Positions 3,168 to 9,120 are shown, numbered from the stretch's first letter. The stretch is 64,000 bases of DNA from Acidobacteriota bacterium (GCA_029781975.1 JAKOVQ010000003.1:188034-252033), one strand, 5' to 3'. Translations and numbers: made by a program. The notes: a model not told the origin generated them from the sequence alone.

Positions 3168-4553
3168 TCAGTCGAAGCCGATGTGGAGCTCGCGCATCCG
3201 GCGCCAGAGCTTGGTCCGGCTCATCCCCAGCTCCGCGGCCGCCTTCGAGCGGTTCCAGAGGTTCCGCTCCAGCGAGCCCCGGATCCGCGTCGACTCGTCG
3301 TCCGCGTGCGGGCCGGCGACGGAGGGACGAGCCGCCCTCGGGGGAAGGGCCGCCGGGGCCCCGTCCCGGATCTCCGGCGGCAGGCTCTCGGCCTGGATCG
3401 TCTGTCCGCGGCAGAGGGCGACCGCGTACTCGAGGGCGTTCTCGAGCTCCCGGACGTTGCCGGGCCACGGGTACCTCTCCAGGACCGACAGGGTGTCGGG
3501 CGAGAGCCAGAGGGCCCGGCCCTCGCGGCCGCCGATCCGCGCGAGGAGGTGCTGGGCGATGAGGCCGACGTCCTCGGGCCGCTCCCGGAGCGGCGGGATG
3601 TGGATGGGGACGACGCGGAGCCGGTAGTAGAGGTCCTCGCGCATCCGCCCCTCGCGGATCGCCTGCGCCATGTCGGCGTTGGTGGCGGCGATGATCCGCG
3701 CCTCCAGCTGCCTCGGTGCGCTCTCGCCGACCCGCTCGAAGACGCGGTCCTGCAGGACGCGGAGGAGCTTGACCTGGACGCCGAGGGGGATGTCGCCGGC
3801 CTCGTCGAGGAAGAGGGTCCCGCCCCGCGCCAGCTCCAGCCGCCCGACGCGGTCCTTCACCGCCCCGGTGAAGGCTCCCCTCACGTGGCCGAAGAGCTCG
3901 GACTCGAGGAGGTCCGCCGGAAGGGCCGCGCAGTTCACCGGGACGAACGGCCCGTCGTGTCGCGGAGACTGCGCGTGGATGGCGCGGGCGATGACCTCCT
4001 TGCCGGTCCCGCTCTCGCCCGTGATCAGGACGGTGGCCTCGGAGAGGTTGAGCGACTCGACGAGGCGGACGATCCGGCTCATCGCGGGCGAGCGCGTCAC
4101 GAGGCCGTGGCTGACGATCGCATTCTGGAGCGCGGCGTCCTCGTCCTCCGCCGGCCGGACCACGACGAGGTAGCGGGCGCGCGGGTCGCAGCAATGGAGG
4201 AACGCCTCCGAGAGGGCGGACGTCGTGATCGAGACGAGGCGGGCGGTCTCTCCCTCGCAGCGGAGGACGCCGCGCCGTCCCTCCTCCCTCCTCCCCTGCT
4301 GGAGGGCCTCGCGGAGGGTCTCCGAGGGGCCGAAGAGGCGGGCGCCGATCAGCTCGTCGATGGGCTTGCCGACGGCCGCGTCGGTGGTCCCGGCGCCGGC
4401 GAGGTCGTCGAGGGTGTGGCTGGCGCGGAGGATCTGGAAGTGCCGGTCGAGGATGATGACGACGCGGCCGAGCGAGCTGAAGATCGCCTCGATCTTGTCC
4501 CAGCCGAGCTCGGCGGGCTCCGCGGGTTCGGCGGGCGCGGACGTCGCGGTCAT
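3168..4553 (-). CDS. PAS-domain sigma-54-dependent transcriptional activator (bEBP), copy 1
   Basis: N-terminal PAS-like domain; Walker A GESGTGKE; GAFTGA loop; FLDE; RLRVVPI; C-terminal Fis HTH ([20 protein letters not shown]). Own -10-like TATCAT at 4569-4564. Confidence 0.92.
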
Positions 4554-4596
4554 TCCCGCCCGGATGATAGCGAAGCCGGCCCGAGGCGACGGGCCC

Positions 4597-6468
4597 TCAG
4601 CCGCCCGGCCGTGACGGGCCGAGGGCGATCGTCCACGACGGCGCCCGCCCCTGGCAGCGCGGCACGCGGCCCGCCGCGAGCCGCTTCCTCGCCGCCCCGA
4701 AGTCCCTCCACACCGGGTCGGCAGCCGTACCGTGGCAGGGGAGGCACGCGCCGACGGCGAGGACGCGGCGGATCTCGCCTCGGGAGAGCGACCGGAAGCC
4801 GACGCGCGTCCCCTTCCCCGGGGCCGGCGCGTCGAGCGCGGTCCAGCCGTCGAGGGCGAGCGCGGGGTCGTCCGGCGCGGGGGCCGCAGGGGAGAAGCGG
4901 GGCTCGCTGCCCGTCAGGTCCAGCCGTCCGGTCCCGAGCCCCGGAGCGACGCTCGACAGGTGGCAGCTCTCGCAGGTCCGGGCCTTCCTGCCGGTCGTGT
5001 GGGGCTCCGCGGGGGCGAAGAGGCGGTGGGAAGCCTTCGTCCCTCCGGCCGCGGTGGCGTCGAGGTCGAGGATCATCCCCGGCACCGCCGGGACGATCCG
5101 CCCGTCGCCCGTGACGCCGAGGGCGGGAGGGCCCCAGGCGTACCCCTCCGACCGCTCGACCCACGCCCACTTCGTCGCGGCGGCCGCTCGAAAGTCCCAC
5201 TGGGAGCGGGCGGGGTCGAAGCCGGTGTGGCAGGTGGTGCACGACGGGGCCCACGCCGTGTGACAGGAGGAGCAGGTGAGCCGCTCGTGGCCGGGGAGCC
5301 GGTGGTTGGCGTCGGGCGGCGTCTGCTTCGTCGCAAGCGCGACGTCGGAGCCCTTCCGGTGCAGGGTCCACGCCGTGCCGTCCGGCGCCGGCCGGAGGTT
5401 CCAGAGGGGCGTCCCGCGCCGGCCGAGCCGGACTCTCTCGGCAGGGAGCCGCTCCTGGCCGCGCATCCTCAGGACGTCGCGCGTGACGGGGTCCGCGACG
5501 GACGCCCACGTCGTCTCGCCTCCCCGCGAGGGGCTCGCTGCCGGCTCCACCGGGCCGTGGCAGGCCTCGCAGGTCACCTCCACCTGCTCCTCCTCGTGCC
5601 GGTGGCGGACGCCGTCCCCCATCAGGTCGGTGTGGAGGTGGCAGTCGACGCAGGCCATCCCGGCGGCCTGGTGGACGTCCGGCTCGACCCGGCAGGCGGG
5701 GCGGCCGTCGTGGAGGACGGCCGGCTCGGCGCACGAGCCCGCCTGGCTCGCCTCGACCTCGGCGAGCCCCTGGTACGAGAGGCTGATCCGCCCGCTCCGG
5801 CTGTGGCAGCCGAGGCAGCGGTCGTCGCCGATCCTCGCGTCGACGGCGGGGTGCGGGCGGGGGAGCTTCCCCTCCGTCCGGCGCTCGACGTGGCAGGCGG
5901 AGCAGCCGGAGCCGTTCCCGTGGATCGCGTCGTCGCGGTTGCCCCGGCGGGCCCCGAGGTGGCACCCGGCGCAGAGCTTGCCGAGGTGGCTCTCGGCCGG
6001 CGTCGGGGGGCGCGACGACAGGACGTCGGCCATCGTCTGAAGGCCGTCCGGCGTCGGCCTCTCGCCGAAGACGAACCGGTCGACCGAGACGATCCCCCGC
6101 GCGGTCGCCATCAGCGACGTCGAGACGCGGGCCGCCTCGCGCTCGTGACAGCCGGCGCGGCCGCAGGTGAGGGAAACGGTCGCGAGGGCCCCCGGCTCCG
6201 GCTCCATCCCCCGGTGCGCGCTCTCCTCGTCGAAGGCGTACGGGTTCCCGAGGTGGCAGGGCGAGCAGCCGAGGGCGGCCCGGGCGTGGGCACCGCCGGG
6301 GTCCTCCTCCGGCCGGACGTGGCAGGTGACGCAGCGCTCGACGCGCCCTCCGGCTCGATCCGGGCCCCGGCCGAGAGCCGCCACGCGCGCCCCTTCCCGG
6401 CCGAGGGCGGCGAGGAGCGACGCCGCCGCGACGAGGAGGGCGACGACGAGGCTCCGCGTCCGGAACAT
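4597..6468 (-). CDS. Multiheme cytochrome c (11 CxxCH + 1 CxxxxCH = 12 hemes)
   Basis: ATG 6468 ([19 protein letters not shown], signal/anchor) overlaps the cyt b stop. Motifs CVTCH, CSPCH, CGRAGCH, CAGCH, CSACH, CLGCH, CVDCH, CEACH, CSSCH, CTTCH, CESCH, CLPCH. Confidence 0.9.
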
Positions 6469-7298: not shown

Positions 7299-7312
7299 GC
7301 CCTGAGCCTCGC

Positions 7313-7714
7313 TCAGAGGGTGACGACCCACCGCCCGCCCGAGCGGGCGACGGGGAGGCGCTCGAGGGGGCGCGGGGCGGGGCCCGCCACGGGGCGCCCC
7401 GCGGCGTCGTAGCGGCTCCCGTGGCACGGGCAGCTGAACCCCCCCTCCGGCAGGGGCGAGACGCGACATCGCATGTGGGTGCAGACGAGCCGGAAGGCCT
7501 CGGGCCGCTCCGGCGTCCCGCTCACCCAGAGCTCGCCGTCGGCGGCGCCCCCGGCCTCGCGCAGCCGGCGAAGGAGGTCGTCGGAGAGGACGACCTCCCG
7601 CTTCGGCGGGACGGCGCCGCGGAGCGCGCGGACGAGGGCCAGGACGCCCAGGGCGGCGAGGGCTCCGCCCGCGGCGCGCCAGGCGTCGGCGACGAAGTCG
7701 CGGCGGGTCACCAC
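7313..7714 (-). CDS. Rieske [2Fe-2S] protein (bc/b6f-type)
   Basis: Tat-like RRDF N-terminus with TM helix; box I CTHMRC and box II CPCHGS; GPAPRPL. Confidence 0.92.
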
Positions 7715-9120
7715 TGGATCCCGAGCTCGCGCATCCGGCGCCAGAGAGTCGACCGGCTGACGCCGAGGGCCTGCGCCGCCTTCCCGCGGTTCCAGTGGTG
7801 GACCTCGAGCGTCCTGACGATCCGGATCCGCTCGGCGTCGGCGGCCTCGGCGGCGGCGGCGCGCTCGGCCTCGGTCCGGGTGTCTCCCGGGCCGTCGTCC
7901 GCCGGGGGCTCCCCGTCGTCGTCGCGGGCGAGGCCGCGGTACTCCGGGGGGAGGTTCTCGATCTGGATCGTCTGGCCGAGGCAGGTGGCGACCGCGAACT
8001 CCAGGGCGTTCTCCAGCTCGCGGACGTTCCCCGGGAACGGGTACCCCTCGAGCGCGGCGAGGGTGTCGGGCGAGAGGAGGAGCGCCCGCCCCTCGCGGCC
8101 GCCGATGTGGGCGAGGAGGTGGCGCGCCAGGACCGGGATGTCCTCGACCCGCTCCCGGAGCGGGGGGAGGTGGATGGGGACGACGCGGAGCCGGTAGTAG
8201 AGGTCTTCGCGGAACCGGCCCGCGCGGATCGCCTCGACGAGGTCGACGTTCGTGGCGGCGATCACCCGCGCGTCCATGGGGCGGGGAGAGCTGTCTCCCA
8301 CCCGCTCGTAGCGGCGCTCCTGCAGGACCCGGAGGAGCTTTACCTGCAGGTGGACCGGCATGTCGCCGATCTCGTCGAGGAAGATCGTCCCGCCGTGCGC
8401 CATCTCGAACCGGCCGACCCGGTCGCGCACCGCCCCGGTGAAGGCCCCCTTGACGTGGCCGAAGAGCTCGCTCTCGAGGAGGTCGCCCGGCAGCGCCCCG
8501 CAGTTGACGGCGACGAACGGGCCGGCGCAGCGGGGCGAGCTTGCGTGGAGCGCCCGCGCGATCAGCTCCTTGCCGGTGCCGCTCTCGCCGGTGATCAGGA
8601 CCGTCGCCTCGCTCCGGTGGAGCGACTCGACGAGGTGGACCACCTTGCGCATGACCGGCGAGCGCGCGACGAGGCCGTGCGAGGCGATCATGCTCTGCAG
8701 GAGCTCGTTGTCGTTCTCGGCCGGGCGGATCACCACGATGTAGCGGGCCCTCGGGTCGCAGTGGCTGCTGACGTGGTCGGGGATCGCCGCCGCCGTGAGC
8801 GAGACGAGGCGCGCGCTCCCCTCGCCGCAGTGGAGGACCGCCCGCCGCCCCTCCTCGCGCTTGCCGTTCTCGAGGGACTCCCGGAGGGTGTCGGTCGGGC
8901 CGAAGAGCTTCGCCCCGACGAGGTCCTCGATCGGCCGGCCGATCGCGTCCTCCGCGGCCCCCGGGTAGGCGAGGTCGTTCAGCGTGTGGCTGGCGCGGAT
9001 GACCCGGAAGCCGGCGTCGAGGACGACGAGGGCGCGCCCGATCGCCTCGAAGACGGTCTCGAGCGTGCCGAAGCCGGGGGTCTCGGCCTGGGCCAGGGCG
9101 GCGGCTGGGAGGCTCGACAT
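7708..9120 (-). CDS. PAS-domain sigma-54-dependent transcriptional activator (bEBP), copy 2
   Basis: [18 protein letters not shown], Fis HTH. Clear paralog of 3168..4553 (shared RASHTL, LFGP, REEGRR, CDPRARY). Its stop overlaps the Rieske start. Confidence 0.92.

Follow-up and report, generated by a model that had tools for sequence, protein, structure and literature searches.

Rieske/cytochrome b complexes are usually seen as donors to high-potential acceptors, by way of a cytochrome with one or two hemes. What does such a complex do when its cytochrome carries 12 hemes and its genes lie between two sigma-54 activators? The question is raised by positions 3168-9120 of a 64,000-nucleotide stretch of DNA from an Acidobacteriota bacterium (GCA_029781975.1, JAKOVQ010000003.1:188034-252033), which is called the window here; its GC content is 70-79%. 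Our answer, held with moderate confidence, is that the cassette would encode a Rieske/cytochrome b menaquinol oxidoreductase with a 12-heme subunit, tied to a Psr-type reductase, and that the flanking activators would switch on the operon of this reductase (psr) and that of an octaheme cytochrome (otr). The cassette consists of five minus-strand genes in a tight array, as defined by a listing of open reading frames (ORFs), translation, and codon-position GC. The two activators are bacterial enhancer-binding proteins (bEBP1 and bEBP2). From upstream to downstream, the features are:

7708-9120, minus strand: bEBP2, 470 aa, first gene of the unit; PAS domain, AAA+ sigma-54 activator domain, and Fis-type helix-turn-helix
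8671-9120, minus strand: PAS sensor domain of bEBP2, with the invariant Cys121 encoded at 8758-8760
7313-7714, minus strand: Rieske [2Fe-2S] subunit, 133 aa; TRRDF twin-arginine signal/anchor, CTHMRC and CPCHGS boxes
6468-7298, minus strand: cytochrome b, 276 aa, GTG start; about seven transmembrane helices, diheme
4597-6468, minus strand: 12-heme cytochrome c, 623 aa; N-terminal signal/anchor, homolog of ExtM
3168-4553, minus strand: bEBP1, 461 aa, paralog of bEBP2 with the same PAS/AAA+/helix-turn-helix build; Cys122 encoded at 4188-4190
9121-9178: intergenic spacer of 58 nt between bEBP2 and a divergent acyl-CoA dehydrogenase gene

This gene order and two overlaps had been proposed in an initial annotation of the sequence, and both are confirmed by the ORFs and their translation. 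The start of the Rieske gene contains the stop of bEBP2 (GTGGTGA), and the stop of cytochrome b and the start of cytochrome c share TGATG, with an overlap of 1 nt. The Rieske and cytochrome b genes are separated by 14 nt that include GAGG, and cytochrome c and bEBP1 by 43 nt. The start of cytochrome b is placed at the GTG at 7298, which is supported by codon-position GC; an ATG further upstream in the raw ORF was set aside. The GTGA overlap between the bEBP2 stop and the Rieske start also occurs in G014, a genome of genus g2, and an overlap of this kind suggests that the sensor is made together with the complex.

The Rieske protein has the [2Fe-2S] boxes and the Tat export signal that characterize the bc1/b6f superfamily. 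It matches the Pfam Rieske model (2e-09) and the NCBIfam models of bc1 and b6f Rieske proteins, and the TAT signal model weakly; the nearest solved sequences are bc/b6f-type Rieske proteins, and the disulfide cysteines are present along with both cluster boxes. Cytochrome b matches Pfam Cytochrome_B and Cytochrom_B_N_2 at 2e-07, the former above its cut-off, and its best match in the PDB is a cyanobacterial cytochrome b6. The protein joins a b6-like N-terminal part to a subunit-IV-like part. Its four heme-ligand histidines, on helices B and D as is characteristic of the superfamily, are arranged as HX13H and HX14H, the b6-type spacing, and all four are invariant in an alignment of the window proteins, placed head to tail, with two fused homologs described below (alignment A4). 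In the same alignment the Qo motif is invariantly GPWY instead of PEWY. With the glutamate of PEWY replaced, the Qo chemistry of the complex may differ.

Cytochrome b6f and the Firmicutes-type bc complexes are close in architecture, sharing with the window protein the b6-type HX14H on helix D and the seven helices with a periplasmic end. In these complexes b6 and subunit IV are split, and in Bacillus subunit IV is fused to a cytochrome c. In contrast, the window joins b6 and subunit IV in one chain, with GPWY rather than PEWY, and no N-terminal cysteine for heme ci is seen in its cytochrome b. The c-type subunit also differs from those of b6f and bc1 complexes: it carries 12 hemes and has no relation to cytochromes f and c1.

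This cytochrome c contains 11 CXXCH motifs and one CX4CH, giving 12 heme sites, has 27 histidines, and carries multiheme c3/c7-type motifs (Pfam, NCBIfam). We found no solved structure related to it by sequence. It has 847 close relatives, and among the matches listed all named ones are called "hypothetical protein". Taken together, the three middle genes are predicted to encode a Rieske/cytochrome b unit in which a 12-heme cytochrome replaces c1. The length of the cytochrome varies among relatives: the orthologs of genus g2 are about 525 aa long and align to residues 1-515 of the query only, and that of G014 (L061:8001-9578) has 11 heme motifs, without the last (12th) heme domain of the window and fused forms.

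Does the 12-heme protein belong to the Rieske/cytochrome b complex? The strongest evidence that it would be a subunit comes from gene fusions. A scan of the collection with the cytochrome as query returned 36 loci, and in two of them, L008 from a Bacteroidales bin (905 aa) and L009 from another Acidobacteria bin (919 aa), a single ORF that follows a Rieske gene encodes cytochrome b and the 12-heme cytochrome. Open frames around the cytochrome b matches in G205 (911 aa) and G212 (751 aa) suggest the same fusion. The heme motifs of L008 and L009 correspond one for one to those of the window, all 12 sites including the CX4CH being invariant in alignment A4, and a PsrA ortholog lies near the fused genes. 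The differences are that one polypeptide there is two genes with a 1-nt overlap here, that the window cytochrome has gained a signal/anchor, a hydrophobic N-terminal segment missing from the fusions, and that no sigma-54 activator adjoins L008. We considered whether the split is a frameshift or an assembly error and rejected this: the TGATG junction recurs in G014, such a junction also agrees with the ORF coordinates of L003 (the contig of the G044 match), and a signal segment of its own precedes the cytochrome, which together indicate a real gene fission. Judged from the alignment, the window thus has the split form of a protein that is fused in other phyla. In topological terms, the seven helices would place the C-terminus of cytochrome b in the periplasm, as fusion to a c-type cytochrome requires.

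The cassette had been likened to the Geobacter Cbc6/Ext cluster, and profile searches bear out the homology: the cytochrome c matches the ExtM model NF040943 at 2e-67 (227.8 bits, positions 16-585 of 599), and cytochrome b matches ExtP at 2.5e-10 (40.5 bits). In Geobacter, GSU2935/ExtM is a 12-heme protein, ExtN carries 10 hemes, ExtO is the Rieske protein, ExtP the cytochrome b, and ExtQ a membrane protein, and the NCBI names of the Ext family refer to selenite and tellurite reduction (PMC5877670). The set is also named Cbc6/CbcMNOPQR, with its role listed as unknown (PMC13591261). The window and Geobacter Cbc6 (ExtMNOPQ(S), GSU2930-2935 in extHIJKLMNOPQS) have in common a Rieske protein, a b6-like cytochrome b, a full-length 12-heme homolog, and a genomic context linked to sulfur or selenium (PMC13591261, PMC5877670, PMC13510729). 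However, both matches stay below the equivalog cut-offs (800 bits for ExtM and 290 bits for ExtP), the cassette holds one cytochrome gene and no 10-heme ExtN, and its order is Rieske-b-c rather than M-N-O-P-Q; these scores and the gene order and content rule out that it is a Cbc6 ortholog set. The ExtJ model NF040942 gives only a chance-level match. Further differences are that the subunit-IV-like part is fused into cytochrome b in the window and Geobacter has a separate ExtQ, that no porin ExtI adjoins the cassette, that a sigma-54 activator is its first gene, and that the reductase nearby belongs to the Psr/Phs-like molybdoenzymes, where Geobacter has the selenoprotein MccSep/ExtKL. The Geobacter order is suggested for L014, L016, and L017 from Desulfobacterota, where some 3 kb separate the ExtM homolog from a cytochrome b downstream, as that order would predict. 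The three Geobacter-type loci lack a PsrA of the kind that lies near the ExtM-like cytochrome elsewhere. The cassette is best described as homologous to Cbc6 and probably working like it, yet not orthologous.

The partner of the complex is indicated by its distribution. Of 201 sampled genomes of the class, 20 belong to the Acidobacteriota family of the window; 15 of these carry the cytochrome, as does a single genome from a different family, and no other genome in the sample does. The relatives of the cassette come from soil, sediment, mine-drainage, and digester metagenomes. When the 20 family genomes were searched with the PsrA of genus g2, orthologs with 70-95% identity were found in 13 that bear the cassette, and no match above 34% identity was found in the five without it. 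Two family genomes have diverged cytochromes (35-36% identity), with an equally diverged PsrA directly beside them. In genus g2 (e.g., G014), bEBP2-Rieske-b-c is followed directly by psrABC, which encodes a molybdopterin oxidoreductase and subunits of the 4Fe-4S and NrfD types. In the genome of the window, psrABC (C27:169192-173000, with PsrA at C27:170736-173000) lies about 20 kb downstream of the cassette on the same strand. The association extends beyond the family: PsrA orthologs with 47-61% identity lie about 1-4 kb from an ExtM-like cytochrome at loci that bear the labels Bacteroidales, Acidobacteria, Myxococcales, Gemmatimonadetes, Nevskiales, and "delta proteobacterium", and the cytochrome adjoins psrABC in L020:5914-12009 (Nevskiales) and L013:2723-7557 (Gemmatimonadetes). 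On this genomic evidence the cassette is not autonomous, since it co-occurs with a Psr/Phs-like psrABC operon.

The distribution bears on a different role, in which the cassette would be the inner-membrane entry of extracellular electron transfer to Fe(III), Mn(IV), or an electrode, and its proximity to sulfur genes would be incidental. The homology to Ext/Cbc6 is real, and the Geobacter Ext/Cbc complexes were first proposed for such a role; in G014 (L061:3370-5310, minus strand) and genus g2, an MtrC/MtrF-like multiheme cytochrome is divergent from bEBP2; the region downstream of the cassette holds a gene for an outer-membrane barrel; and multiheme cytochromes and barrel proteins have been reported in marine Thermoanaerobaculia (10.1101/2020.10.01.322446). 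Nevertheless, the MtrC-like neighbor is not in the window, PsrA accompanies the cassette across the family genomes and the cytochrome in several phyla, and the Geobacter ext cluster itself is now tied to sulfur respiration (PMC13510729), so we consider a role in extracellular electron transfer decidedly unlikely.

The gene content between the cassette and psrABC points to an island for sulfur (or selenium) compounds, and the sulfur/selenium link that had been suggested for the cassette is borne out by this context. PsrA has its best NCBIfam match in the thiosulfate reductase PhsA (475 bits). The island further contains two YeeE/YedE proteins, one of them fused to rhodanese, and a small DsrC/TusE-like ORF; an octaheme cytochrome (Otr) that matches TIGR04315, of the tetrathionate-reductase family, with 599 bits, above the cut-off of 375; a PhsC-like cytochrome b with a further two YeeE/YedE proteins, again one of them rhodanese-fused; an SQR-like flavoprotein; DsbA-like, DoxX/MauE-like, and rhodanese proteins; and the outer-membrane barrel. 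The two YeeE/YedE-rhodanese fusions (C27:167481-168668 and C27:178312-179514) end in GGC (KKGGGC and KKIQGGC), and the C-terminal cysteine after Gly-Gly might serve as a persulfide carrier.

The same genes can be read as a pathway for respiration of selenium or tellurium oxyanions, in which the Psr-like enzyme would be an Srr-type selenite reductase fed by the 12-heme complex. The naming of the Ext family (PMC5877670) agrees with this, as do the rhodanese fusions that follow psrABC, a rhodanese beside Psr-clade enzymes having been taken as a marker of Srr (10.1101/2020.10.01.322446); models of YedE-type selenium transporters match weakly, and by textbook potentials selenite is the better acceptor for a Rieske-type complex. 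On the other hand, PsrA matches PhsA best and no Srr model was matched, and the SQR-like, DsrC/TusE-like, and Otr genes indicate sulfur. We therefore regard selenium or tellurium as an unlikely substrate of the island.

The two flanking genes encode sigma-54 activators with a sensor domain. Both contain Walker A (GESGTGKE) and GAFTGA, the hallmarks of sigma-54 enhancer-binding proteins, and match Sigma54_activat, an AAA lid (AAA_lid_14 in bEBP2), and HTH_8 in Pfam (Sigma54_activat at 1.3e-71 for bEBP2 and about 1e-68 for bEBP1). They are 61% identical over their full length, in agreement with their description as paralogs. The first ~145 residues match no Pfam domain. An AlphaFold model of this part (pLDDT 78.8) has a PAS fold, with a five-stranded antiparallel sheet flanked by helices, and Foldseek against the PDB returns PAS/LOV domains as top matches (probability 1.00, TM-score up to 0.75 on the target), indicating that the PAS label of the initial annotation is correct by fold rather than by sequence. 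A word-seeded search with the N-terminal part found 108 proteins, with full-length matches of at least 55% identity, and the named homologs belong to bins of Holophagales, Thermoanaerobaculia, or Acidobacteria. Among 26 aligned homologs (A3), one cysteine is invariant, corresponding to Cys121 of bEBP2 and Cys122 of bEBP1. In particular, C121, D122, P123, R124, and A125 are invariant in a C-D-P-R-A...R-P-A-E block, and Cys98 is common among the homologs, not invariant.

The upstream activator is the more conserved neighbor. Orthologs of bEBP2, with PAS domains of 70-77% identity, immediately precede the cassette in G140, G108, G009, G014, G048, and G096, and in four further genomes with a bEBP2-type PAS domain the contig breaks. 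PAS domains of a second type, 58-61% identical to that of bEBP2, are found in G144, G140, G108, G176, and G156; the G144 protein of this type is closer to bEBP1 (72% identity) than to bEBP2 (64%). Of the arrangement with an activator on each side, the upstream half is thus widely conserved in the synteny survey, but the double sandwich is confined to the window and G144 among about 14 genomes. The sandwich is accordingly found in one genome besides the window's own, and the cytochrome that it encloses is related to ExtM.

FisR, which responds to sulfide and persulfide in Cupriavidus and Acinetobacter, resembles the two proteins in type and context, as a sigma-54 enhancer-binding protein beside sulfur genes. 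Induction of the sulfide-oxidation operon by sulfide requires FisR, and cysteines of its regulatory domain are implicated in Cupriavidus (PMC7315123), which provides a precedent for sulfide-responsive sigma-54 control of sulfur genes. The differences are that FisR controls aerobic sulfide oxidation (pdo/sqr), whereas the window activators lie beside genes of anaerobic sulfur respiration and carry a PAS domain in which one cysteine is invariant.

Which promoters could these activators serve? The initial annotation had suggested a self-contained module that carries its own sensors. The genome contains rpoN and many canonical TGGCAC-N5-TTGC sites, but scans with a consensus and a weight matrix found no convincing sigma-54 promoter at or inside the cassette or in the 9121-9178 spacer, and we set aside the idea of a neighboring -24/-12 promoter through which the activators would drive the cassette. 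The conserved sigma-54-type promoters instead precede psrABC and the Otr operon, outside the window, and the notion of a self-contained module is abandoned.

Upstream of psrA in 12 genomes (alignment A2), an invariant TGGC.CG..TCTTG block ends about 41 nt before the ATG. It has the -24/-12 spacing of a sigma-54 promoter, with A or T replacing the usual C at -12. Conserved GTTTCA and TGAAAC half-sites lie 90-150 nt above the block; in the genome of the window the site is GTTTCAC-N17-GTGAAAC (C27:173139-173169), and the repeat recurs only once more in 5.4 Mb, on contig C15 beside an unrelated gene. The 180-nt interval from the cytochrome to psrA in genus g2 is taken up by the promoter and the repeat. 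TCTTGA was also considered as a sigma-70 -35 box and rejected: no suitably spaced -10 box is apparent by eye, and TGGC is invariant at the sigma-54 distance. Upstream of the Otr operon (alignment A5), CTGGC-N5-TTCTTGA is present in six genomes, and in five of the six the 10-bp palindrome TGTTGCAACA lies about 150 nt upstream; in the genome of the window it is at C27:175213-175222.

In the genome of the window, C27:173139-173510 contains two tandem sigma-54-like elements before psrA. One of them, TGGTACGCATCTCGCA, has a canonical score and precedes the small DsrC/TusE-like ORF, a protein without the usual C-terminal cysteine arm; the other, the conserved TGGCCCGCTTCTTGAT, stands just before psrA.

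The distribution of the two activators separates the two operons. Otr orthologs with at least 70% identity are present in the genome of the window and in G144, G140, G108, G176, and G156, all of which hold the bEBP1 type; conversely, six of the seven genomes that hold the bEBP1 type have Otr. Genus g2 has bEBP2 and psr and lacks both bEBP1 and Otr. In G156 the bEBP1 type and Otr are present, and the cassette and a psr ortholog are missing. Across genomes, bEBP2 thus appears to track psr and the cassette, and bEBP1 the octaheme operon. The simplest reading, and the most likely one, is that bEBP2 acts on psr and bEBP1 on otr, through related but distinct palindromes.

A different assignment is that the activators control neither psr nor otr: bEBP2 would act on the divergent acyl-CoA dehydrogenase and CoA-transferase genes or on its own operon, and the TGGC...TCTTG blocks would be sites of another factor. 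Genera g1 and g6 share the divergent pair of bEBP2 and acyl-CoA dehydrogenase, the plus strand has a weak GG-N10-GC match at 9110-9125 (AGGCTCGACATCTGCT) that faces the acyl-CoA dehydrogenase gene, and the -12 elements of psr and otr are non-canonical. However, the match at 9110-9125 is not conserved in G140 or G108 and is within chance expectation, genus g2 has bEBP2-Rieske-b-c-psrABC contiguous without an acyl-CoA dehydrogenase neighbor, and each paralog co-occurs with one operon. We regard targets other than psr and otr as highly unlikely.

The divergent acyl-CoA dehydrogenase (9179-10837, plus strand) has a long Ala/Pro-rich linker and an extra C-terminal domain that may be SCP2-like, and is followed by a family III CoA-transferase (10843-11970). 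Elsewhere on the plus strand of the window, the better-scoring sigma-54-like sites include those at 30390-30405 (CGGCATGGCGGTAGCT, score 11.3), upstream of a gene near 30734, and at 36097-36112 (TGGCATCCCGATTGAT, score 12.7), upstream of a gene near 36174. The stretch between psrABC and the cassette ends, at the window's beginning (1-3130, minus strand), in genes downstream of bEBP1 that encode a DUF134 protein (2660-3058), a radical SAM protein (1306-2235), an ArsP_2-type permease with 10 transmembrane helices (281-1297), and a CGGC-domain protein that runs off the window (2-280). A small Gly/Arg-rich ORF with a coiled-coil tail at about 2377-2662 presumably resembles DUF5320. A perfect palindrome, GAACATATGTTC, at 3101-3130 overlaps a TTGACA-type promoter before the DUF134 gene.

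The observations are the gene structure, the motifs for cofactors, the fused homologs, the synteny, the conserved promoters with their upstream elements, and the phyletic patterns. From them we infer a mechanism that extends to the assembly of the complex, the direction and partner of electron transfer, the regulator-promoter pairs, and the signal. The Tat-exported Rieske protein, the seven-helix diheme cytochrome b, and the membrane-tethered or periplasmic 12-heme cytochrome would form a menaquinol:cytochrome c oxidoreductase. Quinol would be oxidized at a Qo-like site, one electron passing through the Rieske cluster into the periplasmic heme chain and the second crossing the two b hemes. The heme chain would most likely exchange electrons with periplasmic sulfur or selenium reductases, of which PsrABC is the first candidate and Otr and others are possible. 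bEBP2, probably co-transcribed and translationally coupled with the complex, would most likely activate the sigma-54-type promoter of psrABC through GTTTCA...TGAAAC, and bEBP1 the Otr operon through TGTTGCAACA. The PAS domains would probably sense reactive sulfur species or redox state, possibly at the invariant cysteine.

Several observations weigh against this mechanism. PsrABC contains an NrfD-type quinol subunit and Otr comes with a cytochrome b of its own; a bc-type donor is not obviously needed by either. By textbook potentials, polysulfide and thiosulfate are thermodynamically poor acceptors for a Q-cycle enzyme that draws on menaquinol. No related cytochrome b was found in the Nevskiales genomes or beside the Gemmatimonadota cytochrome, where a Rieske gene was not searched for, and this pattern suggests that the Rieske/b part is dispensable for the role of the cytochrome with Psr; the link between cytochrome and Psr may thus be the more general one, and the Rieske/b unit an addition. 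On the regulatory side, a promoter driving the cassette itself was not found, the -12 elements of psr and otr are TTGA or TTGT instead of TTGC, and in G144 that of otr ends only about 16 nt before the ATG. G148 has the bEBP1 type but no Otr, and in genus g6 the bEBP1 type lies between otr and psr, so that position alone assigns no target. Finally, all relatives come from metagenome bins, and no RNA runs that hold the locus were found, its sole full holder being an anaerobic digester metagenome that is probably the source of the assembly.

Otr and PsrABC have already been reported from marine Thermoanaerobaculia in a study in which the words Rieske and bc1 are absent (10.1101/2020.10.01.322446). 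Our literature searches found no account of a complex of cytochrome b with a 12-heme cytochrome, in fused or split form, or of a link between it and Psr. What is new is a split, sigma-54-associated variant of the Ext/Cbc6-type Rieske/cytochrome b complex. In Geobacter, a 2026 study showed that ExtKL/MccSep of the ext cluster is the polysulfide reductase on which S0 respiration depends, without naming its electron donor (PMC13510729). This role of MccSep is consistent with a general use of ExtM-type complexes in sulfur respiration, and the association with Psr makes the ExtM/Cbc6-type complex the obvious candidate donor for the Geobacter enzyme.

As a tentative generalization, which we hold to be possible though doubtful, ExtM-type 12-heme cytochromes, whether alone, fused, or coupled to a Rieske/b unit, could be general missing periplasmic partners of sulfur and selenium reductases (Psr/Phs-like here and MccSep in Geobacter), and the PAS-cysteine sigma-54 activators of Thermoanaerobaculia, as a class not recognized before, could sense reactive sulfur species and turn on these anaerobic respirations, with paralogs reading different palindromes. 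The organisms that carry the cassette have no genetic system. The cassette and its fused homologs represent simpler natural versions of the Cbc6-type complex, with three genes here and two in the fused forms: a Rieske/cytochrome b complex with a putative 12-heme wire, genetically tied across phyla to a polysulfide/thiosulfate-reductase-like enzyme. To this is added the probable assignment of the two activators to two different neighboring operons. Together, the promoter-plus-palindrome pairs and the two PAS activators would make a testable circuit for anaerobic sulfur respiration in Acidobacteriota.

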